A stretch of 64,000 bases of DNA from positions 1-64,000 of IMG/VR virus record IMGVR_UViG_3300020414_001694. The stretch is one strand, 5' to 3'. Position numbers and translations under genes: made by a program. A model generated the notes under the pieces. That model was not told where the DNA came from. It worked only from the letters and a program-made list of their open reading frames with translations, and did not search any database. Position 1 is the first letter of the stretch. Each line of letters begins with the position of its first letter. Shown here one piece after another: positions 11,424-49,855 of the stretch. This DNA is from a virus. Lineage: Duplodnaviria > Caudoviricetes.

Positions 11424-11453
11424 TTTATAACATTATTCGGATGGATATGTCAA
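11424..11453 (-). promoter_or_regulatory. sigma70-like promoter inside the SH3 array
   Basis: TTGACA-N18-TATAAA. Confidence 0.6.
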
Positions 11454-11462
11454 GGACTTTAT

Positions 11463-12628: not shown

Positions 12629-12740
12629 TATTTCTCCTCTCCAATGCAGCAGCGAGCAATGCCTCGCAACCTTCTTGCCCGTGCTCTTTCCAAACCTGAA
12701 GTAACAAACGAAGTGCTTCACATACTTCTTGATTAGTCAT
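12615..12740 (-). CDS. 41-aa hypothetical protein (MTNQEV...)
   Basis: Promoter TTGACT-N17-TACTAT (12772-12800) and duplicated leader. Confidence 0.55.
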   Translation of the reverse strand: MTNQEVCEALRLLLQVWKEHGQEGCEALLAAALERRNNESR

Positions 12741-12996: not shown

Positions 12997-13027
12997 ATAA
13001 TAAAGATAACAAAGAGAAAGGCAGAAG

Positions 13028-13141
13028 TCAAACAAAAAGCGACAAGATATGTAAAATAGTTATAAACATGACGCCAGCAGAGAATATCCCAACACCTAAC
13101 TCTGCTTTCCTTATTGCTTCTTTAAATTCTTTATTCTTCAT
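13028..13141 (-). CDS. 37-aa single-TM micro-protein
   Basis: MKNKEFKEAIRKAELGVGIFSAGVMFITILHILSLFV; ATGA overlap with tdk stop. Confidence 0.5.
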   Translation of the reverse strand: MKNKEFKEAIRKAELGVGIFSAGVMFITILHILSLFV

Positions 13142-13698
13142 TGCTTCCCCATTACTGAGTGTTTATAACAAACTGGTTGATAAGACTCTGCTCCACCAAC
13201 CAAGACTTTCTTTTCTTCTTTCGCCAACCTTTCCGTATAGAAAGCATCGGCACCACATTTGTAACATACTGCTGGGCAGATGTCAATACTTGTTGCCCAA
13301 GGCATTATCTTTGTCATCTCTTGAAATGGTTCGTATCCTTTTGGTAGGAACTCCGAGGTAGAAGAAAGTTGCAGCGAAGACACTAGAACTGTTTTACCTT
13401 GTTGAAATAATTTTATTAAAGCATCTGCTGAATTCTCAATCATAAAGAGTTCATCAACACCAACAACGTCAAAATCTCTGGACAGATTGTAGATTTCGAA
13501 ACCTTTCTCAACCAAAGCACACTTGTGCTCTTGTCCCTTGTGAGTTACGACTGTCTCTTCTGAGTATCTCTTATCCATTCTTGGTTTGAATAAAATAGTC
13601 TTCTTGTTTTGATACTGGTACCTCTCCAACGCTGCGAGCATTCTTGTTGTCTTGCCTCCGAACATTGGTCCAGTAAAAACTTTGAGTTGTGGATTCAC
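13138..13698 (-). CDS. tdk: Thymidine kinase (type II)
   Basis: GPMFGGKTT, VGVDE, Zn site CYKC...YQPVCYKH. Confidence 0.93.
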   Translation of the reverse strand: MNPQLKVFTGPMFGGKTTRMLAALERYQYQNKKTILFKPRMDKRYSEETVVTHKGQEHKCALVEKGFEIYNLSRDFDVVGVDELFMIENSADALIKLFQQGKTVLVSSLQLSSTSEFLPKGYEPFQEMTKIMPWATSIDICPAVCYKCGADAFYTERLAKEEKKVLVGGAESYQPVCYKHSVMGKQ

Positions 13699-13928
13699 CC
13701 CTCCTCCCTTTCTTGTAATGCGATAAGTCTGTCGATGTAGAACCTTGCCTTCTTTAAATCTTCCAATGGTTTGCCTTTGAGTTTATGTCTCGTAACGTAC
13801 TTTACCACGTTACCTTCGTTAAAGTCAAGACTCCAAGACTCAATAAAATCAATTACTTCCACTCCCTTGTTGTAGTGCTCGGGATGGAACACCATCTCTT
13901 TTTTCTTTGGCATGTTTCCTCTATTCAA
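13695..13928 (-). CDS. DUF3310 family phage protein
   Basis: HPEHYN.G.EVIDFIE...GNVVKYV.R...EDLKKARFY. Confidence 0.85.
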   Translation of the reverse strand: MNRGNMPKKKEMVFHPEHYNKGVEVIDFIESWSLDFNEGNVVKYVTRHKLKGKPLEDLKKARFYIDRLIALQEREEG

Positions 13929-15756
13929 CTGTTACTGATTTAGCAAGATTCCTCGGTTTATCAACATCCTTATTTCTAATCCTCGCTATCTTATGTGAGA
14001 ATATTTGAAGAGGGATTGTTGTCAACAACGGGGTTAACTCTGGTTTTGTCTTAGGTACTATAATAACAGCATCTGCTGCTTCTGTTAAGTTTTTATCTTC
14101 TTTATCTGTAATTGCAATGACTTTGCCTGACCTTGCCTTTATCTCTTGTAAGTTTGAAATGGTCTTTTCATAAGAGTCGTCGTGTGGCATTACAAAGACA
14201 GAAGGGCAAGACTCATCAATAAGAGCGATGGGTCCATGCTTCATTTCACCAGCAGGATAACCTTCTGCGTGAACATAACTTATTTCTTTTAATTTAAGAG
14301 CACCTTCGAGAGCAACTGGGAAACTTACTCCTCTTCCAAGAAAAAGAAAATCGTCATAGTTCGAATAGATACTTGCTACTGATTCAATTACTCCTGAGTC
14401 GTCTAGTATTTCCTGAACTTGGTCTGGTATTATTGCTAGTGCGTCTTTAAGGTCCATCAGTTTCTCGTCGTCAATATGCCCGAGGCGATGGGACAACTTT
14501 ATAGCAAGCATGGTAATTGCTGCAACCTGTCCAGTGAATGCCTTTGTGGATGCTACGCCAATCTCTGTGCCAGAGTGTGTATAAATTCCTGCATCTGATA
14601 GTCTGGCAATTGAAGAACCTACAACATTGACGATGCCGATGATGAGTGCTCCCTTTCGTTTTGCTAGTTCCAGTGCTGCTTTCGTGTCTGCTGTTTCCCC
14701 TGACTGAGTTATACCTATAACTACATCGTCATTGGCAATGATAGGTTTCCTGTATCTATACTCTGATGCATAGTCAACCTCGACTGGTATTCTGGTGAGA
14801 GATTCTATAAGATACTTGCCAATAAGAGCAGAGTGCCAAGATGTTCCGCAAGATACAATGGTAATTTTCTTTGCTCTAAGGAGTCTCGGCATAACATCTT
14901 CAATGCCACCAAGAGCAATCTCTGGTCCTGCTGCTGCCAATCTACCTCGCAAGCAGTCTGCAATAGTCTCTGGTTGCTCGTTAATCTCCTTCATCATGAA
15001 AGATTCAAAACCTTTTTTCTCAACTGCCTGCAAGTCAAGGAGAAGTTTCTCTGGAAAGAATCCAGTCTCCCTGTTATCTATATCTTTTACTTGGAGTTTA
15101 TCACGAGTAACGATAGCAATCTGGTCGTCTTCTAAGTAAATAACCTCTTTTGCTCTACCAATAATTGGAGTTGCGTCAGAACCAATAATGAAACTACCGT
15201 CACCAATTCCAACTGCGAGTGGCGAAGACTTCTTCGCACAGACTATCATCTCTGCATTAGGTTCAACGACACAAATCGCATAGGCACCGTGAACATATTT
15301 AAGTGCCTCGTGGACTGCATCTTCTAAACTCGAATTGTTTTTTAGTTTTGTGTACTCTATCCAGTTCGCAAGAACTTCAGTATCCGTTTCTGAACGAAAG
15401 AAATATCCATCGTCCATTAAAAGTTCCTTCAAGTGCTTGTAGTTCTCGATGATTCCATTGTGAACTATGGCAAGTTCACCTTTGAGTGACATGTGTGGGT
15501 GGGCATTCTCTTCCGAAGGTTTACCATGAGTTGCCCATCGTGTGTGTCCGATTGCCAAATCTTGTGGCGCAATGTTAGAAGACTTCTTATCAAGTCCCGA
15601 GACTGCACCTTTTGCTCGGACAACTTTTATTTCTTTGTCTTCGATGTAAGCAAGTCCCGCTGAGTCGTAACCTCTGTACTCTAACCTGTAAAGTCCCTCG
15701 ATGACAACCTTTTCTGCTTTCTTTTCCTTACCAATATATCCAACTATACCACACAT
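13921..15756 (-). CDS. glmS: Glutamine--fructose-6-phosphate aminotransferase
   Basis: MCGIVG N-terminal nucleophile, GHTRWATHG, HNGIIENY, QSGETADT, STKAFT, KPRNLAKSVTVE. Confidence 0.97.
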   Translation of the reverse strand: MCGIVGYIGKEKKAEKVVIEGLYRLEYRGYDSAGLAYIEDKEIKVVRAKGAVSGLDKKSSNIAPQDLAIGHTRWATHGKPSEENAHPHMSLKGELAIVHNGIIENYKHLKELLMDDGYFFRSETDTEVLANWIEYTKLKNNSSLEDAVHEALKYVHGAYAICVVEPNAEMIVCAKKSSPLAVGIGDGSFIIGSDATPIIGRAKEVIYLEDDQIAIVTRDKLQVKDIDNRETGFFPEKLLLDLQAVEKKGFESFMMKEINEQPETIADCLRGRLAAAGPEIALGGIEDVMPRLLRAKKITIVSCGTSWHSALIGKYLIESLTRIPVEVDYASEYRYRKPIIANDDVVIGITQSGETADTKAALELAKRKGALIIGIVNVVGSSIARLSDAGIYTHSGTEIGVASTKAFTGQVAAITMLAIKLSHRLGHIDDEKLMDLKDALAIIPDQVQEILDDSGVIESVASIYSNYDDFLFLGRGVSFPVALEGALKLKEISYVHAEGYPAGEMKHGPIALIDESCPSVFVMPHDDSYEKTISNLQEIKARSGKVIAITDKEDKNLTEAADAVIIVPKTKPELTPLLTTIPLQIFSHKIARIRNKDVDKPRNLAKSVTVE

Positions 15757-15789
15757 ATAAAACCCTCCGTATGATGTAATTAGATAAGT

Positions 15790-15912
15790 TTACTTGTATT
15801 TTCCAAGTTCTTTCGCTATTTCGCTGGCAAGAATCCAGCGTGCCGCTTCGGAAGATAAATTAAGTTGAGCGTCTTTGTGTTTCTCTAAAATTGCTTGAAT
15901 AATCTCAGTCAT
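15790..15912 (-). CDS. 40-aa hypothetical protein
   Basis: Hand translation MTEIIQAILEKHK...; overlaps upstream stop. Confidence 0.45.
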   Translation of the reverse strand: MTEIIQAILEKHKDAQLNLSSEAARWILASEIAKELGKYK

Positions 15913-16102
15913 CTTTCTCCATCTTTCTCATCATCTCTTCTAATCTTGCTTCGATTGTTTTTTCCTGACTGCCTTTGTTTTTGTGCATCTTTTCTTCAAC
16001 TTCTCTCAGTTCATTATATGCTATGCCAAGCATGACAACGCACAAAGCAAGAAGCGAAAAGAGAACCAAACCCAGTCTATTTAAAAAGTCAATCGCTTTC
16101 AT
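15905..16102 (-). CDS. Single-TM coiled-coil protein
   Basis: N-terminal TM, charged tail. Confidence 0.6.
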   Translation of the reverse strand: MKAIDFLNRLGLVLFSLLALCVVMLGIAYNELREVEEKMHKNKGSQEKTIEARLEEMMRKMEKDD

Positions 16103-16391
16103 ACTCTTTTCTCAAAACTTTCTCATAGTTTTCACTAAGAAGTGCAGAAGATAAAGTCATGACATCTTGATATCTTTTCAACTCTTCGATAGGGTTGAGC
16201 ATCAGCAGGTCATCGTGTCTTACCCATTCCGTCCTGTCTGAAACTGGCAAAGGGTTTTCGCCTGAATTAATCCACTGAACTTCAAGATACTTCCATCCGT
16301 TACTTCTCAACTCGGTGTCGGTCACTGCGCCGATTTCATAACGTGCGTGTCCACAAGAATTCTTTCTTGCCACAACCTGTCCTCGTTTCAT
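16089..16391 (-). CDS. SH3/KOW-like paralog
   Basis: MKRGQVVARK...IGAVTDT...LEVQW. Confidence 0.65.
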   Translation of the reverse strand: MKRGQVVARKNSCGHARYEIGAVTDTELRSNGWKYLEVQWINSGENPLPVSDRTEWVRHDDLLMLNPIEELKRYQDVMTLSSALLSENYEKVLRKEYESD

Positions 16392-16606
16392 TACGATTCC
16401 TTTTCTGTTAATTTAACTAAATCTGATTCTTTTAGGAAGGCGGTCCAAGTGCCAAATCTTACAACATACTTTCTTTCTCTCACCTCTACAACAATTCCGT
16501 GCCCTTTGAGGCAATGGTCTTCTTCTTTCTCTTCCAAGTGTTTCCACTCTTCCGTCTCGTTGTTGATTCGAACTAAGTCGCCTTTTTCTAATTTGCTATC
16601 GCTCAT
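16391..16606 (-). CDS. SH3/KOW-like paralog
   Basis: LEKGDLVRI...HGIVVEV...VVRFG...DLVKL. Confidence 0.7.
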   Translation of the reverse strand: MSDSKLEKGDLVRINNETEEWKHLEEKEEDHCLKGHGIVVEVRERKYVVRFGTWTAFLKESDLVKLTEKES

Positions 16607-16608
16607 GA

Positions 16609-16815
16609 TTATAAATAGTTTTTTCTTAATTTGAGGATTACTTTATCTCGCTTTTTGGCAAGTTTATATATCTCCTCATCTATGGTCGCCTTCTCCCTAG
16701 TAAGATTCACTATCTTCAAATTCAACCTTGATATCTTCATAGAAAGTTTTTCTTTTTCTTCTTCTTTTTCTTGTGCCATAATGCACCTCCAATAAACCGC
16801 TGTCGATACTTTCAT
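16609..16815 (-). CDS. Small coiled-coil protein (true start likely near MAQEK)
   Basis: ORF track; overlaps neighbour. Confidence 0.45.
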   Translation of the reverse strand: MKVSTAVYWRCIMAQEKEEEKEKLSMKISRLNLKIVNLTREKATIDEEIYKLAKKRDKVILKLRKNYL

Positions 16816-16996
16816 ACACCTTCTGCTTTGATGCCCTGTCTTCTGTTATTTGAAAAACTGGATTATCTCCCATAGTGGAGGACATTAGATAGAAGTGAAA
16901 GTAATGCCTTGTTGACTTCACTATCAAACCAAGTGCCGTGTTCTTCGAATTATGTAGCAAGTCTCCAACTCGGAGGTGATACTTTCCTTCCGTCAT
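16697..16996 (-). CDS. SH3/KOW-like paralog
   Basis: LRVGDLLHN...LGLIVK. Confidence 0.6.
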   Translation of the reverse strand: MTEGKYHLRVGDLLHNSKNTALGLIVKSTRHYFHFYLMSSTMGDNPVFQITEDRASKQKVYESIDSGLLEVHYGTRKRRRKRKTFYEDIKVEFEDSESY

Positions 16997-16999
16997 CCA

Positions 17000-17485
17000 T
17001 CAAAACTCCAAACTCTTTATGTGATAGTCCTCAACACTCATAAGTGTAAGAGAGTCTGGGTGATAGACAACTGCTTCAAGAAACAAGACCTCCGTGACAA
17101 TACCCATCAGTCTGGCAAGTTCTTGCTTCTCATGATTAATGTCTCTTATCTGAAACTCTGCTTTCTTTAGGACAACCTTCTCCCCTCCAATAAGGGTTGC
17201 TCTGATGTTCCCCATTGCTGCAATGCGTGAGTTGAAAGCAAGTTTTTGTCTTATCATTGCTTCCTTTGTTGTCCCTTTCCAGTGACTAAAAGGTTTTTGA
17301 AAATCTGAATAGTCCATCCAGTTTATGACTGTGTGCTTGTGCTCCTTCACCATCTCTCCTATAACGCCCATCGTCTGAACTATATCGAACTCGATAGTCT
17401 CCATAGCAGTGAAAACATCTAGTGGTTCAGAATATACTGTGCGAACCACCTGTGGTAACTCAAATTTTAAAATATTAGAAGACAT
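17000..17485 (-). CDS. Hypothetical protein
   Basis: ORF track, abutting neighbours. Confidence 0.7.
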   Translation of the reverse strand: MSSNILKFELPQVVRTVYSEPLDVFTAMETIEFDIVQTMGVIGEMVKEHKHTVINWMDYSDFQKPFSHWKGTTKEAMIRQKLAFNSRIAAMGNIRATLIGGEKVVLKKAEFQIRDINHEKQELARLMGIVTEVLFLEAVVYHPDSLTLMSVEDYHIKSLEF

Positions 17486-18082
17486 TTAATCCTCGTACTC
17501 ATCGTCGGTTGGATAGTATCCACTATCACAGTTTTCATAAAGTCCATCGTTCGGGTCGTCATCGTCAGCACCGAACCACTCATCGAGAACCTGAGAGAAA
17601 GGGTCGGAACTCGAAGTTGCTGACCGAATTGGTGGCGAGTTCGATACCTTTACACTTTTGTTTGTCGATGTCCTTACTGGTGGTGGTGGAATGATAGGTG
17701 CCATTGGTTGAGTAACCCTTTCATCCCTATCTTTATTGTTTTTCTTTAGTTTCTCTTTTACTGAATCTGTTGCACTCTTGTTTCTCTTCCTTCTCCACTT
17801 TTCATCAAAGTTGTCGATAACCAGACTAGGATAAACGATTGGAATATGAGAGTTTCCAGCGTGATATACTCTCACTTTTTTACCATCATCGAGAGTAAGT
17901 GTCGGGTCGCAATCTCTATAGTCAGAGTGGGCAACGAGACCTGCTGCTGTCAGTTCCAGACTCTTTGTAGTAGGATATCCAGATGAAGTTAGACCAGGAA
18001 CTCTTATGCTGAACAAACCAGTGGGACCAGGAGTGATAATCATTCTTTTTCCATCCTTGTAAAAAGAAATGTGTTTAATCAC
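17486..18082 (-). CDS. Hypothetical protein with disordered acidic C-terminus
   Basis: ORF track. Confidence 0.65.
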   Translation of the reverse strand: MIKHISFYKDGKRMIITPGPTGLFSIRVPGLTSSGYPTTKSLELTAAGLVAHSDYRDCDPTLTLDDGKKVRVYHAGNSHIPIVYPSLVIDNFDEKWRRKRNKSATDSVKEKLKKNNKDRDERVTQPMAPIIPPPPVRTSTNKSVKVSNSPPIRSATSSSDPFSQVLDEWFGADDDDPNDGLYENCDSGYYPTDDEYED

Positions 18083-18212
18083 GATTCTCGTACCTCTCTC
18101 TTGCTAACTCCTTTGCGAGACAATAAGCAGCAAAGGGCATCATCATTGCTGAACCGATGACGAGAGGAACCGCAATAATAAACGTATCCAAACAAATGAG
18201 TGTTCTTTTCAT
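18075..18212 (-). CDS. 45-aa single-TM protein (different frame from track ORF 18079..18276)
   Basis: MKRTLICLDTFIIAVPLVIGSAMMMPFAAYCLAKEL...; SD GAGGAG; promoter TTGCTT-N17-TATTAT upstream. Confidence 0.55.
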   Translation of the reverse strand: MKRTLICLDTFIIAVPLVIGSAMMMPFAAYCLAKELARERYENRD

Positions 18213-18317
18213 AAACTCTTTCTTTCTCCTCTCTTTCTAATAAATAGATAATATCAAAAAGAGAGGAAGAAAGCAAGAGAAAGGAGCAGGGAAAATGAAA
18301 AAAACCCTACAAAAAAT

Positions 18318-18410
18318 TGGCAGTGGGAGAGGGATTCGAACCCCCGTGACGCTACAAACGCCAAACGGTTTTCAAGACCGTCGCAATCAGCCAGACTCTG
18401 CCATCCCACT
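18318..18410 (-). tRNA. trnS: tRNA-Ser(UGA)
   Basis: Acceptor AGTGGGA/TCCCACT, G73, encoded CCA, anticodon arm ACGGT-CTTGAAA-ACCGT, long variable arm, GGTTCGAATCC. Confidence 0.95.
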
Positions 18411-18467
18411 ACAAAAACAACTCTCGGTTGCTGTTAATAATTAGTTCTTTACCTGTTTCTTTTTGAA

Positions 18468-18791
18468 TTAGATTCCAAAACTTTCGCCACATCCGCAGGT
18501 TCTTTTCGCTGTCGGATTTTCAAATTTAAAACCTGATTGTCCCAATTCATTTCTGTAATCTATCTGAGTTCCCATAAGGTAGAGAAGTGATTTTCTGTCT
18601 ATCACTATCTTTACACCGTGACTCTCCAACTCCCTATCCTCATCTTTCACTTCATAGGCGTATTTAAGTTGATAAGTAAACCCCGAGCATCCACCGCCCT
18701 GGACACCAACACGTACACCAATTGGTCTAGGGTCCATGTTCGAAAAGAAGTTTTTCAAAGCATCTGCTGCTGCTTCAGTCAAGGTTATCAT
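18468..18791 (-). CDS. iscA: A-type Fe-S carrier IscA/HesB
   Basis: GGGCSGFTY, F.FENP...CGCGESF. Confidence 0.95.
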   Translation of the reverse strand: MITLTEAAADALKNFFSNMDPRPIGVRVGVQGGGCSGFTYQLKYAYEVKDEDRELESHGVKIVIDRKSLLYLMGTQIDYRNELGQSGFKFENPTAKRTCGCGESFGI

Positions 18792-19296
18792 CGTCAGTCA
18801 CCTTGTTGTAAAACCTGAAATCATCGAAGAATTTATCTTGTGCTGTTAGTTTTATTTCTTCTGCCAGTCTAAGAATAGACTTAGAATACCTTCTTTTGAC
18901 TGCCCTGGATGTTCTAGAATTCGGTTTGTTGATACAAACATTACCAGCATTGTATCCGCACAGTGCTCTCTCCATGTCGCCTTTCGCCCTCGCCAACCAG
19001 TATTGCAAGGCAACCGTGCCCGCCTTAATGGATGTCTTGGGTCTCTTTAGTTGTTCGCAAGTGTAGTCGGAATACTGAGGTAACACTTGGGTAAGACCAC
19101 AAGCACCTGCACGACTGACTGCACGAGGGCGAAAGGCACTTTCGTGAAAGATAAGAGATGAAAATACAACAGGGTCTATCCCCCTCTTTTCGGACTCTTC
19201 AACTATGTTGGGCATGACTTCGCAGACTGTTCTACTCTGAACACTGGGCATCCCAAGGGTTGCTACAACCGCTATGCATAATTGTGTTGCAAACAT
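18775..19296 (-). CDS. Lytic transglycosylase (SLT domain) with N-terminal signal/anchor
   Basis: IFHESAF (catalytic Glu), AVSRAGACGLTQV, ALCGYNAG. Confidence 0.88.
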   Translation of the reverse strand: MFATQLCIAVVATLGMPSVQSRTVCEVMPNIVEESEKRGIDPVVFSSLIFHESAFRPRAVSRAGACGLTQVLPQYSDYTCEQLKRPKTSIKAGTVALQYWLARAKGDMERALCGYNAGNVCINKPNSRTSRAVKRRYSKSILRLAEEIKLTAQDKFFDDFRFYNKVTDDDNLD

Positions 19297-19309
19297 CTCT
19301 TTCTCTCAC

Positions 19310-19912
19310 TTACTCTACTTCAATATCCACTGATATGTTCACATACATAGTTGGAAGTCTCAAATGGTTTGCCATATTATGCTTCTTACATTCTTCTGCT
19401 TCCAAGAACCAGTCTGCGTGCTTCTTCTTATCCACAATCTTCAAGAAGTGGTCGTCCTTCTTCCCACAATTGCGTGCCATCATTGTATAAATCTTTTGGT
19501 TTAATCTATCTGCCTCTGCTGCGCCTGCTTTGAGTTCCTCGACCTTGCCCCAGTCCATTGAACTTACGTCGTGAATCATTACAGTTGCGTCTTTGTCCAT
19601 AAAACGAAGACCGTCTTCGCCAAAAGAAAAAAGAACAGCACCACAAGACATTGCTTTGCCTTCAACAATTGTTGCGACTGGTAGTTCGGAATCCCGAATG
19701 GCAGCAATCATTGACATCAAAGAGTATACCTGACCGCCATAAGAATCAATAACAACAGGAATAATCTTCTGCCCCGTATTGTGTGCCTGTGCCATGTCCA
19801 GTGCAAAGTTCTTGGCAGACTCTTCATCAAACTTGTTTACACGAATGATGACTGGTGCCTTCCTGAGTTCTACAGTTTTGATTAGTGGCGAAATCTCTAC
19901 TTTATGCTTCAT
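19310..19912 (-). CDS. clpP: ClpP-family serine protease (copy 1)
   Basis: IDSYGG, AMSCG (Ser), MIHD (His), ADWF..AEE (Asp). Confidence 0.9.
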   Translation of the reverse strand: MKHKVEISPLIKTVELRKAPVIIRVNKFDEESAKNFALDMAQAHNTGQKIIPVVIDSYGGQVYSLMSMIAAIRDSELPVATIVEGKAMSCGAVLFSFGEDGLRFMDKDATVMIHDVSSMDWGKVEELKAGAAEADRLNQKIYTMMARNCGKKDDHFLKIVDKKKHADWFLEAEECKKHNMANHLRLPTMYVNISVDIEVE

Positions 19913-20141
19913 CTTCTTCTTCCTTTTCACAAATAACTTCTGACTCTGTTTCTATCCAGACTTTTGCTCCACAAGATAGAGGTTTGTCTGGAGAATAAAT
20001 AATTCTACAAGGACCGTTCACATAAACCTCACTGCAATAAGTGTTGTCTTTATAAGTTTTCACTGTAATAACTGGTTCTCTGTCTCCAGTCTTTGAGTTA
20101 GAACGAATTTTGTGCTGGTTTACATGGATACGCTTCTTCAT
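19902..20141 (-). CDS. Conserved phage hypothetical protein
   Basis: IHVNQH.I...EPVITVK...GP.R.IYSPDKPLSCGAKVWIET pattern recalled from phage genomes. Confidence 0.75.
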   Translation of the reverse strand: MKKRIHVNQHKIRSNSKTGDREPVITVKTYKDNTYCSEVYVNGPCRIIYSPDKPLSCGAKVWIETESEVICEKEEEDEA

Positions 20142-20230
20142 AGTCTTCTATGCCTGTACCAATCATATGCTACTGAACCAACGAAGATAGCAGCAGCGAG
20201 AGTAAGAATGTCTATCAAAAAATCAAACAT
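20138..20230 (-). CDS. 30-aa single-TM micro-protein
   Basis: MFDFLIDILTLAAAIFVGSVAYDWYRHRRL; ATGA coupling to next gene. Confidence 0.5.
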   Translation of the reverse strand: MFDFLIDILTLAAAIFVGSVAYDWYRHRRL

Positions 20231-20426
20231 TGTCATTTTCCTCTGTTGCCTTCATTGTCTCCAAATACTCTTTTATAAACTCTTTATTTTTCAAGAGTTC
20301 TTGAAATTTTTTTTGTGCTTCAATTTCTTGCTTTATCCTCCTAACTTTCAAGTCAAAATAGATTGCTCCTGACCAGAAGAAAAGTAATGAGAGGGTATAA
20401 GCAGAACCTTGTAGGATTTCTAACAT
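20223..20426 (-). CDS. Single-TM coiled-coil protein
   Basis: ORF track. Confidence 0.6.
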   Translation of the reverse strand: MLEILQGSAYTLSLLFFWSGAIYFDLKVRRIKQEIEAQKKFQELLKNKEFIKEYLETMKATEENDNV

Positions 20427-20449
20427 TTACTAACCTTTTTAATTGATGT

Positions 20450-20668
20450 TTAACCAGTAAAGAAAGATAGGAACTTTTCAAACAAACTCTTGTCATTCTG
20501 TTGATTATCAATGTTCCATCTTGTCTGGTCTATTGCTTCACGCTGCTCGAACTCGTCCCACTGAAGTGTTCTCGCTTTAATTATTGCTTCTTGCTCGTCC
20601 GATGCCTCGATAGACACCCAGGCATTCTTTTCAATAAGATGTGATTGTCTTACTCTGAATGTCTTCAT
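20450..20668 (-). CDS. Hypothetical protein
   Basis: ORF track. Confidence 0.6.
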   Translation of the reverse strand: MKTFRVRQSHLIEKNAWVSIEASDEQEAIIKARTLQWDEFEQREAIDQTRWNIDNQQNDKSLFEKFLSFFTG

Positions 20669-20689
20669 GCATTCCCTTTCAAAGAAAAG

Positions 20690-20765
20690 TGGTGCTGGCG
20701 GTAGGAATCGAACCTACGACCTGATGATTACAAATCAACTGCTCTGCCAACTGAGCTACGCCAGC
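20690..20765 (-). tRNA. trnT: tRNA-Thr(UGU)
   Basis: GCTGGCG acceptor, TAGCTCAGTTGG D-arm, loop TTTGTAA, GGTTCGATTCC, CCA. Confidence 0.95.
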
Positions 20766-20770
20766 GTAAG

Positions 20771-20844
20771 CACCCCAGGCAGGATTCGAACCTGCGACCC
20801 ACGGATTAGAAGTCCGTTGCTCTATCCAACTGAGCTACTGAGGT
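20771..20844 (-). tRNA. trnR: tRNA-Arg(UCU), CCA not encoded
   Basis: ACCTCAG/CTGGGGT acceptor, ACGGA-CTTCTAA-TCCGT anticodon arm. Confidence 0.93.
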
Positions 20845-20847
20845 ACA

Positions 20848-20923
20848 TGGTGGAGGTGAGGAGATTCGAACTCCTGACCTTCTGCGTGCAAGGCAGACGT
20901 TCTCCCAACTGAACTACACCCCC
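20848..20923 (-). tRNA. trnA: tRNA-Ala(UGC)
   Basis: G3:U70 identity pair, TCTGC-CTTGCAC-GCAGA, CCA. Confidence 0.96.
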
Positions 20924-26150: not shown

Positions 26151-27158
26151 TTAGATTCTGTCCTTATGTCCCGAAAAGATAATCTCAAAGTTATCTCTCT
26201 TTAAATGCTCTGTGATGTAGTACTGCATGTCGTCCATTGAATCAAACTCAAACTTATTATCTCCATGATAAAGCATAAAGCGTCGAACCTGCTCTAAGAC
26301 ATCAACCTTGTTGATTACAAGTGTGGTAAGTCCGTTAATGTCAACTGCCTTAGACACCGCATCTAAGTCAAACCAGTCAACCTTTCTCGGTCTTCCTGTC
26401 GTTGCTCCGTACTCTTCCCCAACATCTCGAATTGCCTTAGCAACAATACCTTCTTCCATGCCAAAGTCTTTTGCCCCGACATAAGTTTCATAAATCTTTG
26501 CAGCACCATAAACATTACGCACTGACTGTGCTGGGATTCCGTTCAAGACTGCTCCACCGACAGTGCAATGAGATGAAGTTACGTAAGGATAGTCTCCCCA
26601 GTCCACGTCAAGTCCAAAACCCTGAGCGCCTTCAAAAAGAATCTTTACAGTAGACTCATTGTTGTGGTGAAATTCTTGATAGATATCAATAAGATACTCT
26701 TGCAGTTCTGGTACCTGCTCTGCCCTCACACCTTTCCTACCGTATTTATCACGATAAGCAGGTCCGTTGCCTCTCTTGGTAGTTCCAATTGCTTTATCTT
26801 TATTGTCTTCTGCTAAGTGCCAATCTGTAATGACATGAGCGTTTTTAGCAATTGACAAAAGATTATCTATATCAATACCAGCATCTCGCAACTCTTTCAT
26901 CTCTGAAAGCAGTCTGTCTGGATTCACCACACACCCTGGACCGATGATGGATTCTATTCCAAAGAACACACCGCAAGGGATGACGTGGGTTACAAACTTC
27001 TTGCCCTCGTGATAGATAGTGTGCCCAGCGTTGTGCCCGCCATTGTAGCGAACAACGTGTGTGTAATCACCTGTTCTTGCAAGATGATGTGTTATCTTAC
27101 CTTTACCGCAATCTCCGTGCTGCACATCAACAACTACGTCGGCAATGATGTTAGACAT
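26151..27158 (-). CDS. purA: Adenylosuccinate synthetase (short form)
   Basis: GDCGKGK, GGHNAGHT, GTTKRGNGPAY, FEGAQG, YPYVTSS, GATTGRPR, NKVD. Confidence 0.93.
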   Translation of the reverse strand: MSNIIADVVVDVQHGDCGKGKITHHLARTGDYTHVVRYNGGHNAGHTIYHEGKKFVTHVIPCGVFFGIESIIGPGCVVNPDRLLSEMKELRDAGIDIDNLLSIAKNAHVITDWHLAEDNKDKAIGTTKRGNGPAYRDKYGRKGVRAEQVPELQEYLIDIYQEFHHNNESTVKILFEGAQGFGLDVDWGDYPYVTSSHCTVGGAVLNGIPAQSVRNVYGAAKIYETYVGAKDFGMEEGIVAKAIRDVGEEYGATTGRPRKVDWFDLDAVSKAVDINGLTTLVINKVDVLEQVRRFMLYHGDNKFEFDSMDDMQYYITEHLKRDNFEIIFSGHKDRI

Positions 27159-32016: not shown

Positions 32017-32538
32017 TCAGTCTTCTTGTTGTGGTTTGTAAAGAGTTTTTATCTCTCCCTCTTCTGTTGGAAAAGAAGAGATTTCAACATTCGCAAACCC
32101 ACTTTCTTTCAACTGTTCTAGGTTAGGTGTTCCTGAGAAAATTACATTTCTAACTGCGTCAAAAGGAATGTTTGTTCCGAGAGTATCGACCATGTTATCG
32201 ACACCAGAACCTGACATTGCTGCTGAATCCTTCATTCTCACCCTGCACCCTTTTGAGTTTGGATAAGATTCATATTGCATCGAACCCTCAAGGAATGCCC
32301 CATCAATCTCTAGAACGACGTTACCAAACGATTTTGCATCTTGAGGGTCAGAGCAAGTCGGAACGCCCATCTTGTCCTGCTCAATATCTAAATCTGTTGG
32401 CAAGTTTACGATTCCGTTGTCTCTGATGTTTGGTAAATTCTGAATGTCTGTTCCGTAATAAACCTTCATTGGAAAACCTTTGTCCGTCATCGCTGTTTCT
32501 TGGAGGTATTTTCTCCACTCTGTTAAAATCTTTTTCAT
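32017..32538 (-). CDS. ADP-ribosyltransferase-fold-like protein with MKKILTEWRKYL leader
   Basis: VYYGT..NL..I...GI; S.PQDAKSFG.VVLEID; IPFDAV. Confidence 0.5.
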   Translation of the reverse strand: MKKILTEWRKYLQETAMTDKGFPMKVYYGTDIQNLPNIRDNGIVNLPTDLDIEQDKMGVPTCSDPQDAKSFGNVVLEIDGAFLEGSMQYESYPNSKGCRVRMKDSAAMSGSGVDNMVDTLGTNIPFDAVRNVIFSGTPNLEQLKESGFANVEISSFPTEEGEIKTLYKPQQED

Positions 32539-35709: not shown

Positions 35710-36090
35710 TCAGGAATTTTGTTTTTCTCTGTAATCTTCGATGGCAGATTTGATTGCGTCCTCTGCAAGCACTGAGCAGTGGATTTTTACTGGAGGAAGC
35801 GAGAGGTGCTCTGCGATATCCTTGTTTTTTACCTCTTTTGCTTCGTCCAAGGTCATGCCCTTCAACCACTCTGTTGCGAGCGATGACGCTGCGATTGCAG
35901 AACCGCAACCATAAGTTTTAAAGCGTGCCTCTTTAATAACGCCGTCTTCAACTTTTATTTGCAGGCGCATCACATCTCCACAAGCAGGAGCACCGACCAA
36001 ACCAGTACCAACGTCAAGCGCATTCTTGTCCAGGGTGCCTACGTTTCTTGGATTCTCGTAGTGGTCTAGAACTTCTTTTGAGTAAGTCAT
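35710..36090 (-). CDS. iscU: Fe-S cluster scaffold IscU (start MTYSKEV)
   Basis: DHYENPRN, GAPACGD, FKTYGCGSAIA, LPPVKIHCS. Confidence 0.96.
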   Translation of the reverse strand: MTYSKEVLDHYENPRNVGTLDKNALDVGTGLVGAPACGDVMRLQIKVEDGVIKEARFKTYGCGSAIAASSLATEWLKGMTLDEAKEVKNKDIAEHLSLPPVKIHCSVLAEDAIKSAIEDYREKQNS

Positions 36091-36539
36091 AGATTGCTCT
36101 TGTCTTGCCATTCGTGAGAAATTTGGTCATCAACGATAGGACCGCCCTTTGCCCAAGTGTAGCAAGACCTAGCAGAGTGGCACTTGAAGTGGTGCATCCA
36201 GCAGTAACCCAACTCTCCGTCCTTGTCGGTAGTTACACCTGGCATACATTCTTTCATTCTAGGAGAAATGTCGAAGGCGACACAATTAGAGCAGTTAGAT
36301 TTCTTTGCTGCCTTCTCTGTAGTGTCCCAATATTTTGCGATGTCTTTCCAGTAGTCGCCAGGTTCATCAACATTCAATGGACCGTATTTTATGTGGTCTG
36401 CGTGGATGGCAGCATCTCTATTCTTCGTGTTGAGTTTCAAGTCTTGAGTTGCTGGTGGGCAAACGTAATCCTTTACCTTTCCCACAGTGACTTTCACCTC
36501 GCTCATAAACTTGCGCCAATTTTCCATTAATTGTTTCAT
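36087..36539 (-). CDS. Cys-rich conserved phage protein, possible HiPIP-like Fe-S fold, with MKQLMENWRKF leader
   Basis: CPPATQD; CSNC...GYC-x12-C-x2-W; ATGA-coupled to iscU. Confidence 0.7.
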   Translation of the reverse strand: MKQLMENWRKFMSEVKVTVGKVKDYVCPPATQDLKLNTKNRDAAIHADHIKYGPLNVDEPGDYWKDIAKYWDTTEKAAKKSNCSNCVAFDISPRMKECMPGVTTDKDGELGYCWMHHFKCHSARSCYTWAKGGPIVDDQISHEWQDKSNL

Positions 36540-36542: not shown

Positions 36543-38537
36543 CTATCTCTTTGTGTAACTCTTGGTTACTTTGCCCTTTTTTGTAGCAGCAACGTTTTGC
36601 TTGCCCTTCTTTGTGCCTGCTCGCTTCTTTGCGTTGTCTGCTGCCTTTTCACCCTTAGACATCTTCGCCCACTTTGCCTTTGGTTTGCAACGCTCAACTG
36701 AACCGTCTTCACGACCATCGCCACAAGGTGTTCCATCAGAGTGAACCCACTTTTCGTCTGCCCACTTTTGTAAGTCACCCTCTTCGATGCTCTCGTCTTT
36801 CTTGCCTCGACCGTAGTTATCATCTTTACAGTATTTAGAAGCAATCTGTGCTGCACGAGCAGACCAGTTCTTGAGAACACCGTCTTCACACTTAACATCT
36901 TTAATCCCTGGCGAGTCAGAGTTTACAACAAACTTTAGACCTGCTGTGCAAATCTCTTTGTCAGAGTAGCAACCGCCTTCTTCTTCAAGTCGTTGGACAA
37001 TAGTTTCCCTGACTCTTGTGCGAAGTGCTTCGTCTGCTTTGATGCAGTTACGATATTGTTTGCCGAACATTTCTTTTGTCTTTCTGGTAGGATGTGTCTT
37101 GTAACCCTTTTGGCACTTGCCCGCTTCTTCGAGTTTGCCAATGACATCCTCAATCACCATACGAATTTCTTCAGTGGTATACTCTTCTTTCATAGACTTT
37201 TTACCACGGCATTTCCACTTCTTTCTGGAAAGGTTGTTAGGAGTGTTGGGGTCATTCTGCTTTTCTTTGGACAACCCTTTCTTGATTCCGTAAGAGCGAG
37301 CGCAATAACTATCTCCCTTAGAAGTACCTGGAGCAATCCTGTATCCCTTTGCTCCATAACTAACTTTTTTCTTTCTACCAGTCTTGGGATTAGTCACAGT
37401 CTTTGAATATTTCTTGCCCTTTGCTGGTTCTTCATCGAGCATATTCAAAACCTCTTCCTTAATCTTTTGTATCAAATCTTCATTCTTGACCTGTGCAGGG
37501 AGACCCTTGTGCTTGGTTCCAGCAAAATCATCAACCTGCTTTGTAGTCATTTTATCTGCTTTGCTCTTCATTTCTGCGTCGGGGCAATCGCCGTCCTCTT
37601 TGCACTTTTTTAACATACCGAAGTATCTTTGTTGCGCCTTAGAGACTGCTTTTTCATCAAGTTCTCCTTCTTCCTTCATCTTGATAGGTTTTACGATACT
37701 CCTTTGATACTCGCCGTCGTCCTTATCTAAAATCTTTTCTGCTACATGCCCAACAACATCTGCAACGGTCGCCTGCTCGTTTGTCTTTCTCAATTGAGAA
37801 AGAATTTTTGAGACATCGCCTGAGTCCATTGCCTGAAAAACTTTTATTACGAGTTCGTAAAGTCCTTCCTTTGTGTAACCAAACTCGTCAACCTTATCGT
37901 TGAGAGCGTCCATGTCATCCATCGAAAGAACTGCTTCGTCAACCTTTTCAGAAGATAAAGACATCAAGGTATTCCAGTGTTCATCTGATATACCCCTCGG
38001 AGGTTTGCCATCAGTCTTCTGAGCAATAGCATCCAGTGCCGACCTGTACTTCTTTTTTGATTTTGGCGTTGGATTATCAGAAAGGTTATGTACCATGTCT
38101 GCCAATTTTACACGAAGAGTGGGAACGTCACCCATCAAACCGACAACATAAGACTGGTAATCCCCACCTTTTTCGTGGGTTAGGGCACGAACAACCCTGA
38201 TAACTTCATCTGCTGATGCTGGGTCTTGAATCGAACCCTTAATGTAATCTTCCATCTCCTCGACCGTCGATACAGTAGAACCAGGAGCATCTTCAAGGGC
38301 ATCATGTAAAAGTGCTGCCATCTGAATAACATTGTCTTTTGGATAAAACTTTCTCGCAATATTCCTGACCTCTGATGGATGAGAGAAATAGTCCGAACCA
38401 TCTCTTCTCTTTTGACCAACGTGTGCCATCTGTGCTGTCTGATAGACATCTTTAAAGTCTTCTGGTGAAAACTTCTCTTCTACTTTTTTATTTTCTCGCA
38501 AGTACTTTTGCCAATTGTCTGTAATCTTGTTGCTCAT
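36543..38537 (-). CDS. Mosaic polyprotein: RelA/SpoT-type HD hydrolase plus about 6 short modules
   Basis: AH.GQ.R..G..Y..HP; AALLHD.LED; VKLAD..HN; modules separated by linkers ending xDE/xEE. Confidence 0.85.
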   Translation of the reverse strand: MSNKITDNWQKYLRENKKVEEKFSPEDFKDVYQTAQMAHVGQKRRDGSDYFSHPSEVRNIARKFYPKDNVIQMAALLHDALEDAPGSTVSTVEEMEDYIKGSIQDPASADEVIRVVRALTHEKGGDYQSYVVGLMGDVPTLRVKLADMVHNLSDNPTPKSKKKYRSALDAIAQKTDGKPPRGISDEHWNTLMSLSSEKVDEAVLSMDDMDALNDKVDEFGYTKEGLYELVIKVFQAMDSGDVSKILSQLRKTNEQATVADVVGHVAEKILDKDDGEYQRSIVKPIKMKEEGELDEKAVSKAQQRYFGMLKKCKEDGDCPDAEMKSKADKMTTKQVDDFAGTKHKGLPAQVKNEDLIQKIKEEVLNMLDEEPAKGKKYSKTVTNPKTGRKKKVSYGAKGYRIAPGTSKGDSYCARSYGIKKGLSKEKQNDPNTPNNLSRKKWKCRGKKSMKEEYTTEEIRMVIEDVIGKLEEAGKCQKGYKTHPTRKTKEMFGKQYRNCIKADEALRTRVRETIVQRLEEEGGCYSDKEICTAGLKFVVNSDSPGIKDVKCEDGVLKNWSARAAQIASKYCKDDNYGRGKKDESIEEGDLQKWADEKWVHSDGTPCGDGREDGSVERCKPKAKWAKMSKGEKAADNAKKRAGTKKGKQNVAATKKGKVTKSYTKR

Positions 38538-38884: not shown

Positions 38885-39322
38885 TTACTCGATATCAATC
38901 TTTTGAGGTTGCGCCTCTAGGACTGGTGGAACCTTTACTACTAATAACCCATTCTCAAACTTAGCGGTAATCCTCTCTAAGTCAAGTTTGTTGCCGTAGT
39001 CGTAAAACGTTTTTGAGAAAGAACGTCTGGCAATTCTACGTGAAGTAGACTCGCCTTCTGTACTTCCTGCATCAGCGTGGATAGTGATACCCCTATCCTT
39101 TACTTCAATGTTTAATTGTTCTTTTGTAAAACCAGCAAGAGCAAGTTCAATAGTTGAATTGCCTGACTCGTCTACATAAATGTCAGTCACTGGATAACCA
39201 GAAGTTGCCTTCTGAATCATTGGTGCTGGGTTAGCAAAAAACCCGTCCCAAATGTCATCAATAACTGAACGTGTTAGTAAATTCGGAATTCGATATAATG
39301 TTGGTAATGTGTTATTTGTCAT
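38885..39322 (-). CDS. Small heat shock protein (Hsp20/IbpA family)
   Basis: YP..DI...IELALAGF.K..L.I...RIARRSF...A.FENGLL.V. Confidence 0.93.
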   Translation of the reverse strand: MTNNTLPTLYRIPNLLTRSVIDDIWDGFFANPAPMIQKATSGYPVTDIYVDESGNSTIELALAGFTKEQLNIEVKDRGITIHADAGSTEGESTSRRIARRSFSKTFYDYGNKLDLERITAKFENGLLVVKVPPVLEAQPQKIDIE

Positions 39323-44174: not shown

Positions 44175-45764
44175 TTATTCCGTCTCAACAATTCCGTGAG
44201 AAGTGGTAATAAGTGTGCCTGCTGCGGATACAGCGTTTAGGAGGGCAGTTTTTGTTACCTTTAATGGGTCGATAACTCCAGTCTCGTAAAGGTTGCTAAC
44301 TTCACCTGTTGCAAAGTTGTAACCTGAACCTGTTTCTGCTTCTCTCACAGTCTTCTCAGTCAAGTCAACTGAAAGTCCAGCATTCGATGCCATCTTGCGA
44401 AGTGGTGCTGAAACTGCTGACAAAACAATTCTCGCTCCAAGTGCCTGGTCGTTGTTCTCAGTCCCAAGGGTGTCGAACGGAACCTCGCTAAGTCGTTGAG
44501 ATGCCTGAACTAATGCTGTTCCACCACCTGCTACGGTTCCGTCTTCTTGCGCTGAACGAACTGCCTGTAGAGCATCCTCTGCTCGGTGAAGTGCTTCCAT
44601 CATTTCTATCTCGGTGCTTCCACCAATCTTTAAAATAGCAACACCAGAAGCAAGACGATTAACACGAGTCTGAATTCTCTCACATTCTTTAAGAGAGTCT
44701 GTTTGCTGAATCTCTGCCTTTAACTGCTCGATTCTCTCTTCGAGAACGCTTGGGTCACCTGCTCCACCGACAAATGTTGCCCAGTTTTTCTTCGCCTCGC
44801 AGACCTTAACTGTGCCCAAATGTGAGACATCTACCTTGGACAGAGATTGCTTACCAGCAGGACCAAGGACAGTTGCTCCAACCGAACTTGCTAAATCTTC
44901 AAGACAAGCACGTCGGTCTTCTCCATATCCTGGTGCTCGAATTGCTGCAACCTTCATTGTACCTCGAACAGTGTTCATAATAAGAGCAGCGAGTGCTTGG
45001 TCTTGAACATCCTCTGCAACAATAATAAGTGCTCGTCCTTCTCTTGAAGCAATTTGTAAAGCAGGAAAGATTTGTTCTACTGCTGAAATAGTTGTATCTG
45101 AAACAAGAACAAGTGCGTTCTCGTGTCTCATAGTCCATCTGCGCTTGTCAGTTACAAACTGAGGTGAAAGATAACCAGAGTCAAACTGAAAACCTTCAAT
45201 AAGTTCTAAAGAAGTTGTTGAAGAGTTTGCTGGTTCAATAGTGATAGCACCATCTTTGCCTGCCTTGTCTACTGCCTCGGAAATAAGGTTTCCAAGGTGC
45301 TTATCTCCATTGGCAGAGATGGTTGCAATGTGTCGAATATCGTCGAGCGTTTCAATAGGTCGTGAGACCGTCTCTAACTCTGTTGTAAGAGCAGTTACTG
45401 CCTTATCCATTCCTCTCTTAATTTCCACTGGTGAAATACCCGCAGAGAGGTGTGCTGTCGCTTGACGAAAGATTTCGTGAGACAAGATAGTAGAAGTGGT
45501 TGTTCCGTCTCCTGCTTCGTCTGCTGTGACTTGTGCTGCCTGCTTAATAACCTGTGCTCCCAAGTTTGCAACAGGGTCAGAAAGTGAAACGAAAGAAGCA
45601 ACCGTTACACCATCTTTGGTGATAACTGGGTTTTCACCCTTCTTTTGTAGAATAACATTTCTACCTTTAGGTCCGAGAGTAGCGCCAACATTTTCTGCTA
45701 ATGTTGTTACACCCTCCAATAGTTTAGTTGATAGTTCTTGATTATTAGAATAGACTTTGCTCAA
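44175..45764 (-). CDS. groEL: Chaperonin GroEL (phage type, TTG start, no GGM tail)
   Basis: TLGPKGRNV, TKDGVTVA, AGDGTTT, EGFQFDSGY, APGYG, VAGGG, GVIDP; promoter TTTACA-N17-TATAAT at 45793-45821. Confidence 0.96.
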   Translation of the reverse strand: MSKVYSNNQELSTKLLEGVTTLAENVGATLGPKGRNVILQKKGENPVITKDGVTVASFVSLSDPVANLGAQVIKQAAQVTADEAGDGTTTSTILSHEIFRQATAHLSAGISPVEIKRGMDKAVTALTTELETVSRPIETLDDIRHIATISANGDKHLGNLISEAVDKAGKDGAITIEPANSSTTSLELIEGFQFDSGYLSPQFVTDKRRWTMRHENALVLVSDTTISAVEQIFPALQIASREGRALIIVAEDVQDQALAALIMNTVRGTMKVAAIRAPGYGEDRRACLEDLASSVGATVLGPAGKQSLSKVDVSHLGTVKVCEAKKNWATFVGGAGDPSVLEERIEQLKAEIQQTDSLKECERIQTRVNRLASGVAILKIGGSTEIEMMEALHRAEDALQAVRSAQEDGTVAGGGTALVQASQRLSEVPFDTLGTENNDQALGARIVLSAVSAPLRKMASNAGLSVDLTEKTVREAETGSGYNFATGEVSNLYETGVIDPLKVTKTALLNAVSAAGTLITTSHGIVETE

Positions 45765-48520: not shown

Positions 48521-49855
48521 TTACTCTTCTTTAGTAAGTAGAATCTCACGAATGATTTCCTTCACTTGGTCGTGAAGTTTTGCTTCTTCAGCGGTGAGTT
48601 TTGGACCATCGGTATAGCGGTCACCCTTTTTCATATTGGCAAGTTTTTCAATTCTTTTCTTTTTCTCGTCGTCGGACAAATCATCTCTACCCTTGATATC
48701 GTTGGCAACCATCTTGCGCCAGACCTCAAAAGGAATCTTGCTTCGCTTGGTATCAAGTTCGCCTGCTGTTGGGTCACGAAGTTTTCCGTCTTCTCCCGAC
48801 CTTGCCTGTCCCTGCTTGTAACCAGCAACTTTTTGAGAACGCTGCGCCTTAGCAAACATTTCTCTTGCACCACCAAGTTCAGCAATCTTTTCGCCTGCTG
48901 CTACAATTGCTGGGTCTTGCAAAAGTTCAGGGTCGTGAGCGGCAACGATAAAGTCAGTAAGACGATTACCTAATTTATCACCTGATTTATCTAAAAGCGC
49001 CATCATCCCCCTATACAGAATCTTGCCATTCTTGTTTTTAGGTTCACGAGTCGAACCATCAAGAAAGTCTGTAAGGTCTTTGGTCGCTTTGGCAAGAACT
49101 TGCTTGGCATACTCTGGTGTATAAGGTTTTCCGTCCTTAGTTTTCATTTCGTCTGCCAATTCTTTTGGAACAAGAAGTGAATCATCACGCAAGTCATAAA
49201 TGTTAGCATAGATGTCGCCACCAAGAATCTTGATATTGCGATATCCGTCAAAAAGTTGAAAGTATCCTCTGTCGTCCTGAACCTCGTCCTGATATTGTTT
49301 TGAGATAGTTGCGGTTGGAGCACCAACTGTTCTTGCTCTGTCCTTATCTCTCTGAATAGAAACTTCTGGTGGAACATTAATTTGAAAAACAGCAACATCG
49401 TAACCCGCTTCGTTTAGTTCCTCTGCTCGGACACCCATCTTCATTACGTCTTCGCCAGTTGTGTCGAAAATAACAGGTGTAGCAGTGTTTAACCAGTTTG
49501 CTGTTTTTGCTTGTGAAGCATTTTGAAGTTTTTCACGAAATGCTTGTTGTTGCTTCCAGTTGTCCAAGTCTGTTTTATCTGCAAACTTCAAACCAACGCC
49601 AAAGTTACCAAATTGTGCTTCAATGTCTTCGTCTGGGTTGGAAGTTACGAACTCTTCTGGAATACCCAACTTACCTGAGATAAAAGATTTACCAGCGCCA
49701 GCAGGTCCAAAGATGAAAATTGCCTTAAACGGATTTGGGTTATTCCGAAGTGCAATTTCTTCAAGCGGTTGCGGTTCCTCAAGGAGCATTGTTTTCTTAT
49801 GCTCTTCGACTGCCTCTTTGATGAGACTTTTTAGGTTTTTCAAATCTAGTTTCAT
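48521..49855 (-). CDS. Zeta-toxin/AAA_33-like P-loop kinase with helical leader
   Basis: KAIFIFGPAGAGKS, NPD, IFDTT, GYDV....V..E.S..R...R.R. Confidence 0.75.
   Translation of the reverse strand: MKLDLKNLKSLIKEAVEEHKKTMLLEEPQPLEEIALRNNPNPFKAIFIFGPAGAGKSFISGKLGIPEEFVTSNPDEDIEAQFGNFGVGLKFADKTDLDNWKQQQAFREKLQNASQAKTANWLNTATPVIFDTTGEDVMKMGVRAEELNEAGYDVAVFQINVPPEVSIQRDKDRARTVGAPTATISKQYQDEVQDDRGYFQLFDGYRNIKILGGDIYANIYDLRDDSLLVPKELADEMKTKDGKPYTPEYAKQVLAKATKDLTDFLDGSTREPKNKNGKILYRGMMALLDKSGDKLGNRLTDFIVAAHDPELLQDPAIVAAGEKIAELGGAREMFAKAQRSQKVAGYKQGQARSGEDGKLRDPTAGELDTKRSKIPFEVWRKMVANDIKGRDDLSDDEKKKRIEKLANMKKGDRYTDGPKLTAEEAKLHDQVKEIIREILLTKEE

Follow-up and report, generated by a model that had tools for sequence, protein, structure and literature searches.

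A gene on the minus strand of a tailed-phage genome fragment (36543..38537) encodes a 664-residue protein, P0001, in which a 15-residue leader, a RelA/SpoT-type HD domain, an acidic helical segment and five small modules with Cys pairs, joined by helices of about 17 residues, follow one another in a single chain. The window analysed is the first 64 kb (64,000 nucleotides) of the 75-kb IMG/VR virus record IMGVR_UViG_3300020414_001694 (Caudoviricetes; G000), estimated to be 41% complete. We propose that P0001 is a string of tag-cargo units resembling those directed by the capsid-targeting sequence (CTS) of phage T4, and that it would be packed into the prohead and cleaved there, so delivering an alarmone hydrolase together with basic peptides; on comparative sequence analysis, we regard this proposal as evenly poised between right and wrong. 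It builds on the architecture of the protein, its full set of catalytic residues, the shuffling of its units among relatives, the homology between its linkers and leaders, a tag that is both virus-specific and N-terminal, and the co-occurrence of this tag with a T4-type prohead protease.

Domain architecture and catalytic residues

P0001 is encoded by one uninterrupted ATG-to-stop frame, so that an earlier, sequence-only reading of the locus was right to describe a single open reading frame (ORF) opening with the leader MSNKITDNWQKYLRE. The six modules quoted in that reading are all present in the order it gave, the three long linkers are predicted helices, and the endings LDE, LEE, VDE and IEE are all found at the junctions. 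The leader (residues 1-15, 38493..38537; this and all features below lie on the minus strand) terminates in L-R-E and is a variant of the ENWRKFLxE tag family. It is followed by the RelA/SpoT-type HD hydrolase domain, which resembles small alarmone hydrolases (SAHs; residues 16-200, 37938..38492) and is recognised by Pfam, PHROG and solved structures alike. At residues 33-155 it matches PF13328 (HD_4) with 27.2 bits, equal to the cut-off, and PF01966 (HD) with 25.1 bits against a cut-off of 22; phrog_990, 'metal-dependent phosphohydrolase', is matched with an E value of 2e-25 and the solved Rel/SpoT hydrolase structures with E values of 8e-10 to 1e-8, the homology matches spanning residues ~25-171. 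Alignment to M. tuberculosis Rel (5xnx) places all hydrolase residues, namely R44, Y50, H53-P54, H78-D79, E82-D83, D147 and N151; the HD domain announced by the sequence-only reading is thus of the RelA/SpoT homologue (RSH) type with every catalytic residue in place. NCBIfam SpoT/RelA models match over their hydrolase part only, and no synthetase, TGS or ACT domain was matched by Pfam or NCBIfam anywhere in the 664 residues.

Judged by its sequence, the HD domain of P0001 is an intact SAH, whose proposed substrate is (p)ppGpp/(p)ppApp, the candidates being ppGpp, ppApp and pyrophosphorylated tRNA. It shares the RSH-type HD, the catalytic residues and the lack of a synthetase with PaSpo of Salmonella phage SSU5, Mesh1 and the Rel/SpoT hydrolase domain, and differs from these characterised enzymes in carrying an N-terminal tag and 460 residues of modules, at an identity of only ~30%. 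PaSpo neutralises toxSAS toxins (PMC9712102), and an SAH has also been described from a Pakpunavirus (PMC12846349).

The acidic segment M2 (residues 201-295, 37653..37937; isoelectric point (pI) 4.4), which ends in ELDE, has no family match in Pfam and PHROG scans; it accompanies the HD domain in most relatives and occurs with a leader and without the HD domain in P0189 and P0203. Module M3 (residues 296-352, 37482..37652; KAVSKAQQRYFGM...) is DUF3008: residues 296-352 alone match PF11450 with an E value of 3.8e-5 and 24.2 bits against a cut-off of 24 (17.9 bits in the whole protein), and phrog_30268 with an E value of 4e-11. Linker 1 (residues 353-371, 37425..37481; ..EDLIQKIKEEVLNMLDEE) leads to the basic module M4 (residues 372-452, 37182..37424; PAKGKKYSK..GAKGY..GDSYCARS..KKWKC), whose weak match to DUF6321 lies below the gathering cut-off (18.5 vs 28.5 bits). 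Behind linker 2 (residues 453-471, 37125..37181; ..EEIRMVIEDVIGKLEE, ending L-E-E) stands the core of M5 (residues 472-502, 37032..37124; GKCQKGY...YRNCIK), a CxxGY..NC unit with weak PHROG matches only, of which the form CW.GY...PNCVP is present in many relatives. Linker 3 (residues 503-520, 36978..37031; DEALRTRVRETIVQRLEEE), again ending L-E-E, precedes M6 (residues 521-586, 36780..36977; ..EICTAG..NWSARAAQIASKYC.., ending SIEE) and M7 (residues 587-664, 36546..36779; LQKWADEKWV followed by a Lys-rich tail). M7 matches phrog_14910 with an E value of 5e-10 and DUF5872 with 13.3 bits, below the gathering cut-off of 27.5, and the columns invariant in its alignment are W, C, G, R, C and P; M6-M7 together resemble DUF5872, an Atlas feature search pointing, as no more than a lead, to DUF5872 clusters (0.86-0.87). 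Two Cys residues each are found in M3, M4, M5 and M7, and four in M6.

The three long linkers (residues 352-368, 455-471 and 503-519) are helices in an AlphaFold2 (AF2) prediction of low overall confidence; they end in LDE, LEE and LEE, and the remaining junctions in VDE, LDE and IEE. The AF2 model of M3-M7 is poor (mean predicted local distance difference test score, pLDDT, 52). A separate model of M6-M7 reached a pLDDT of 71 overall and ~80-88 over the M6 core, yet matched no solved fold (best Z 3.0), only uncharacterised viral proteins; given these values, the assignment of folds to the modules, a DNA-binding fold included, was dropped. The sequence-only reading had taken the modules for basic DNA-binding peptides: they are basic, with a pI of 10.1 for the junction-to-junction unit 372-469 (M4 plus the downstream linker) and of 9.8 for residues 585-664 (M7), and binding to DNA is suggested by this charge only. 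Our literature search found nothing functional on DUF3008, DUF5872 or DUF6321, uncharacterised viral mini-domains of marine phages and, in the case of DUF5872, of giant viruses too; in P0001, unlike in the Pfam families, they are chained in one protein with a leader-type helix before each.

Leaders, linkers and the viral tag

A word-indexed search returned 193 relatives about as long as P0001; 4,081 cluster representatives came from a full HMMER scan, and modules were mapped on 253 fetched proteins. The sequence-only reading had suggested looking for the modules free or shuffled in other phages, and both situations are common. The full architecture is found in four independent proteins on other contigs (91-92% identity), and over 250 database proteins contain the units differently ordered or combined, the arrangements including M1-M2-M4, M1-M2-M3-M4, a different N-terminal domain (X) followed by M3..M7, X-M5-M6-M7, M6-M7-..-M4 and each module alone. 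M4 is 97-100% identical among relatives whose HD domains are ~80% identical. M6 occurs in 87 of the fetched proteins, P0132 consists of a leader and M6, and M7 is free-standing in P0133, while roseophage CRP-212, Vibrio phages, S-TIM5 and S-PM2 encode M4 and M3 as small genes of their own. With P0001 as query, IMG/VR returned only M4-bearing small phages; at 80 such loci, which served as a leaderless control, M4 stands as a gene of its own, beginning M-(A)K-PxKGK and lacking a leader. The PxKGK start of the free gene corresponds to the residue following the putative cut MLDEE|PAKGK in P0001.

Two side observations concern the same set of relatives. M4-bearing proteins of other phage lineages (P0215, P0217, P0220, P0223, P0226, P0227, P0230, P0232, P0235, P0237, P0239, P0240 and P0244) have another N-terminus in common, M-x-LTP-x-x-LR-x-D, in many cases with ..C.(G).....KC.K... 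after it; this could be a further leader specific to a lineage, or else a conserved domain at the N-terminus. In P0040, P0046, P0088, P0099, P0101 and P0185, runs of 8-12 Lys separate the modules; these are presumably encoded by poly-A tracts and are possible slippage sites that could toggle fusions.

The leaders of the relatives are of two types, A (MKxLMENWRKFLxE, of which MSNKITDNWQKYLRE is a variant) and B (MKITKxQLKxIIKEE.. or MKLLREYIRxLLKE), and the P0001 linkers EDLIQKIKEEVLNMLDEE, EEIRMVIEDVIGKLEE and EALRTRVRETIVQRLEEE belong to type B. The free-standing M4 protein P0135 starts with MSNNLRNRIKEAILKRLNEKPAKGKKYSK, nearly the same as the internal linker and M4 start of P0053 (EELRSRIKEAILGRLAEAPAKGKKYSK), and linker 1 of P0001 is homologous to the P0135 leader. 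Because the linkers are homologous to the leaders of free-standing versions, P0001 is a series of leader-cargo units joined end to end. At the DNA level, the linkers share no more than short and weak direct repeats, with no sign of recent duplication. Elsewhere in the window, a 444-residue ORF (48521-49855, minus strand) has a type-B-like leader (MKLDLKNLKSLIKEAVEE..LLEE) on a cargo that matches only phrog_12810, of unknown function.

A motif recurs at many junctions of the family. A hydrophobic residue followed by any residue and Glu ([LIVMF]xE) lies no more than 8 residues upstream of the module start at 121 of 198 distinct junctions, compared with 14.6% of random windows, and the spacing is constant for each module. 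Immediately before DUF3008, [LV]xE was present at all 19 distinct junctions, in at least five unrelated upstream contexts; the corresponding junction of the T4-like cyanophage S-PM2 reads VLHE|KSVSK. Since other PHROG families begin DUF3008 at profile position 3, the LxE is not part of that domain.

The leader itself extends well beyond the relatives of P0001. A six-frame reading of the 75-kb record contains W[RQK]K[YFW][LMIV]x[ED] at just three places, all of them ORF starts (38537, 36539 and 32538). Apart from P0001, these ORFs are the next gene downstream (36087..36539, minus strand), 3 nucleotides away, in which the tag (MKQLMENWRKFMSE) precedes a Cys-rich cargo unrelated to that of P0001, and a gene at 32017..32538 (minus strand; MKKILTEWRKYLQE) with another unrelated cargo. 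A degenerate DNA pattern for ENWRKFLxE was searched in IMG/VR and in 596 Gb of prokaryote genomes. At least 100 stretches matched in IMG/VR, the tag being carried there by dozens of unrelated cargoes; among the matches listed, 111 of 111 tags opened a frame or lay close to its start, 86 of them with an ATG no more than 8 codons upstream, and the Cys-rich cargo of 36087..36539 recurred with the tag in L241, L250 and L254. The prokaryote genomes gave 24 matches, about the number expected by chance in our own estimate, of which only two were tag-like, both on contigs of metagenome-assembled genomes (MAGs). The tag ends in a hydrophobic residue, any residue and Glu (YLRE in P0001, FLxE in the family) and forms an amphipathic helix on highly varied cargo. 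Judged from these searches, the leader belongs to a class of N-terminal tags that is widespread among viruses, specific to them and similar in build to the T4 CTS. One of the two MAG contigs, L297 (116 kb; NHHP01000006.1), binned as Candidatus Pelagibacter TMED166, carries a true tag, MKLILENWRKFLKE, and may be phage DNA binned into a MAG.

Genomes of relatives were located in IMG/VR through the DnaE-type polymerase (65-70% identity) and include complete genomes of 184-190 kb. The T4-type prohead protease that the sequence-only reading had invoked is present in this group: PF03420 (T4 gp21, Peptidase_S77) was detected in all eight near-complete related or tag-bearing genomes, namely G001-G003 and five large tag-bearing ones. 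The HK97-type S78 protease (PF04586), considered as a candidate, is absent from the near-complete G001-G003 and from the 65%-complete record G004. In G002 (IMGVR_UViG_3300029319_000003), the terminase, the portal, two unknown genes, the protease, a 189-residue scaffold candidate and a gp23-type capsid protein follow one another, as in a T4-like head region, and the scaffold candidate and the N-terminus of the major capsid protein contain helices similar to the tag (..EQLKKLLKPIVAECIQEE.. and ..LINKWEATGLLEG.., respectively). The same genome has nine consecutive or near-consecutive type-A tagged genes (9891-19506) with MKLxMENWRxFLxE starts, the cargo of which yielded no Pfam family above the cut-off and a single sub-threshold match. 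By extension from these relatives, the phage encoding P0001 would be a marine phage of ~180 kb with a T4-type head.

Proposed delivery and its rivals

In T4, the CTS MKTYQEFIAE (~10 residues) loads the internal proteins, which are strongly basic, or any other protein fused to it into the prohead and is then cut off (PMC8442874). The protease gp21 recognises a short motif and cleaves behind its Glu, the 682-residue Alt being cleaved at ITE-6 and LTE-619 (PMC5694885). The tagged proteins described here resemble T4 IPI-III and Alt in having a short amphipathic N-terminal peptide that ends in a hydrophobic residue, any residue and Glu, in their unrelated and often basic cargo, and in the distance of their genes from the head genes; the lineage likewise has a gp21-type protease and a gp23-type capsid protein, and Alt, cut at both ends, illustrates that a large cargo is feasible. 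They differ in the tag, which is of the ENWRKFLxE or QLKxIIKEE type and 13-17 residues long rather than MKTYQEFIAE, in the inclusion of an alarmone hydrolase among the cargo, and in the joining of several tag-cargo units within one ORF, with internal copies of the tag as linkers and with putative packaging and cleavage. No described counterpart of such chaining was found in the literature; the concatenated form and the ENWRKFLxE-type tag sequence are the new part.

Following the T4 model, the N-terminal 15 residues would act as a lineage-specific tag of the capsid-targeting type that docks P0001 to the scaffolding core, leading to its enclosure in the prohead. The gp21-type protease, cutting after Glu, would then remove the tag and probably also cut at the ends of the linkers. 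The first cargo would be the RSH-type HD hydrolase for (p)ppGpp/(p)ppApp and the others the small basic Cys-pair modules, each behind an internal copy of the leader helix ending in [LIV]-x-E; hydrolase and basic peptides would remain associated with the DNA and pass into the host on infection, where the hydrolase would remove alarmones before phage genes are expressed and thereby blunt the stringent response or a toxSAS-type defence. A more tentative extension, which we hold possible though with less than even confidence, is a polyprotein-based injected arsenal built by in-frame recombination of tag-cargo cassettes, every one of which brings a capsid-address helix and a head-protease site; a single gene would load a changeable set of effectors into the head, the maturation protease would free them, and the alarmone hydrolase would disarm stringent-response or toxSAS (CapRel/FaRel-type) immunity as the DNA enters.

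Polyvalent proteins of phages and conjugative elements (Iyer, Burroughs, Anand, de Souza and Aravind 2017, PMC5512222) offer a further comparison, as they too have many domains, extreme mosaicism between close relatives and domains that also occur solo, and their delivery with DNA and processing into units have been proposed (PMC5512222). None of their signature domains (MuF, zincin-like MPTase, ArdC, DNA methylase, SNF2, ParB or PBECR) was detected in P0001 by Pfam or PHROG, and of the RelA/SpoT domains the 2017 survey includes the synthetase but not the HD hydrolase (PMC5512222). Unlike theirs, the processing of P0001 would depend on the head protease and not on a built-in peptidase.

Several points weigh against packaging and cleavage. 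The lineage is known from sequence alone, and the tag shares only a pattern, with no detectable homology, with the T4 CTS. No head gene, PF03420 included, was found on the 75-kb fragment, an estimated 41% of the genome from which the head module is missing, and the protease of the P0001 phage is for this reason extrapolated from relatives with 65-70% identical polymerases. The sequence-only reading had pointed to the (I/L)xE motif after which the T4 protease cuts, but the number of such sites in P0001 lends no support: six of the eight [LI]xE sites are at the leader end or at junctions, but shuffling within the linkers gives 5.1 expected against 8 observed, which is no excess, and shuffling within the cores gives no significant depletion in the domains (0 observed against 1.3 expected, P 0.25). 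The LxE count in P0001 was accordingly dropped as evidence of cleavage, as the composition of acidic, Leu-rich helices suffices, and the junction motifs may have come along with leaders at fusion instead of having been selected for cleavage. The gene also lies in a replication and auxiliary region beside iscU, hsp20 and groEL and not among head genes, and the M3 and M4 homologues of S-PM2 and S-TIM5 are annotated 'hypothetical' next to genes annotated as virion proteins. These last two points and the LxE count lend themselves to a different account. P0001 would be an uncleaved, cytoplasmic multidomain protein made after infection, as befits the free-standing phage SAHs known as ordinary expressed genes; its modules would bind nucleic acid or host factors, and the leader and linkers would be spacers or self-association helices left by gene fusions. 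We consider this rather unlikely, as it leaves three things unexplained: an identical peptide of 13-15 residues begins unrelated proteins by the dozen, and does so only where the phage has a T4-type protease; in small phages these modules occur with neither leader nor LxE; and LxE abuts DUF3008 in every context.

The tag might instead dock somewhere other than the capsid, for example to the phage's own chaperonin or Hsp20, or to a replication or assembly factory, or serve as a degradation or timing signal, with the polyprotein gathering several clients there. An amphipathic helix on very varied cargo, the GroEL and Hsp20 encoded nearby and the indirectness of the link between tag and capsid would all suit such a destination, which we nevertheless judge improbable: the tag helix closes with the P3-P1 pattern of the head protease that this lineage encodes, similar helices are present in the scaffold candidate and major capsid N-terminus of G002, and the T4 precedent fits all observed features. 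We know of no precedent for docking of such a tag to a non-capsid destination. That P0001 is an artefact, small genes having been joined by an assembly error, a frameshift or mis-called stops, is hardly credible; the poly-Lys (poly-A) linkers of related proteins could slip, but the P0001 frame is open over 1,992 nucleotides, and the four full-length counterparts on other contigs and the many in-frame variants repeat the arrangement independently.

Genomic setting and biological meaning

Almost all genes of the window are on the minus strand. G000 encodes a DnaE-type polymerase, ribonucleotide reductase, DnaB helicase, GroEL, a UvsX-like protein, a single-stranded DNA-binding protein, IscU, Hsp20 and four tRNAs, and the end of a tape-measure-like gene is found at the far edge of the 75-kb fragment. 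Near the tagged genes are the groEL gene (44175-45764, minus strand; phrog_5725, E value 1e-134) and two genes at 35710-36111 and 38885-39322 (both minus strand) that are IscU-like and Hsp20-like, respectively, by reading of their translations alone, with no family search. The four tRNA genes (Ser-TGA, Thr-TGT, Arg-TCT and Ala-TGC), three of them tightly clustered, occupy 18318-20923 (minus strand). At 26151-27158 (minus strand), a 335-residue PurZ/PurA-like protein matches phrog_1211, '2-aminooxy adenylosuccinate synthetase', with an E value of 1e-72 and adjoins an endonuclease-like gene (phrog_8420), which may hint at modified-base metabolism.

Should the proposed delivery prove wrong, a strongly mosaic family of phage proteins, headed by a phage SAH, has nevertheless been clearly mapped. 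If it is right, the T4 principle of capsid targeting would extend to a large and abundant group of uncultured marine phages with a tag of their own, tag-cargo units could be chained and shuffled as cassettes, and the alarmone hydrolase would be a probable pre-packaged enzyme of counter-defence or host takeover. An N-terminal ENWRKFLxE or QLKxIIKEE would then provide a sequence handle with which candidate injected proteins can be listed in metagenomes, most of them without a known function, including the widespread DUF3008, DUF6321 and DUF5872 modules.

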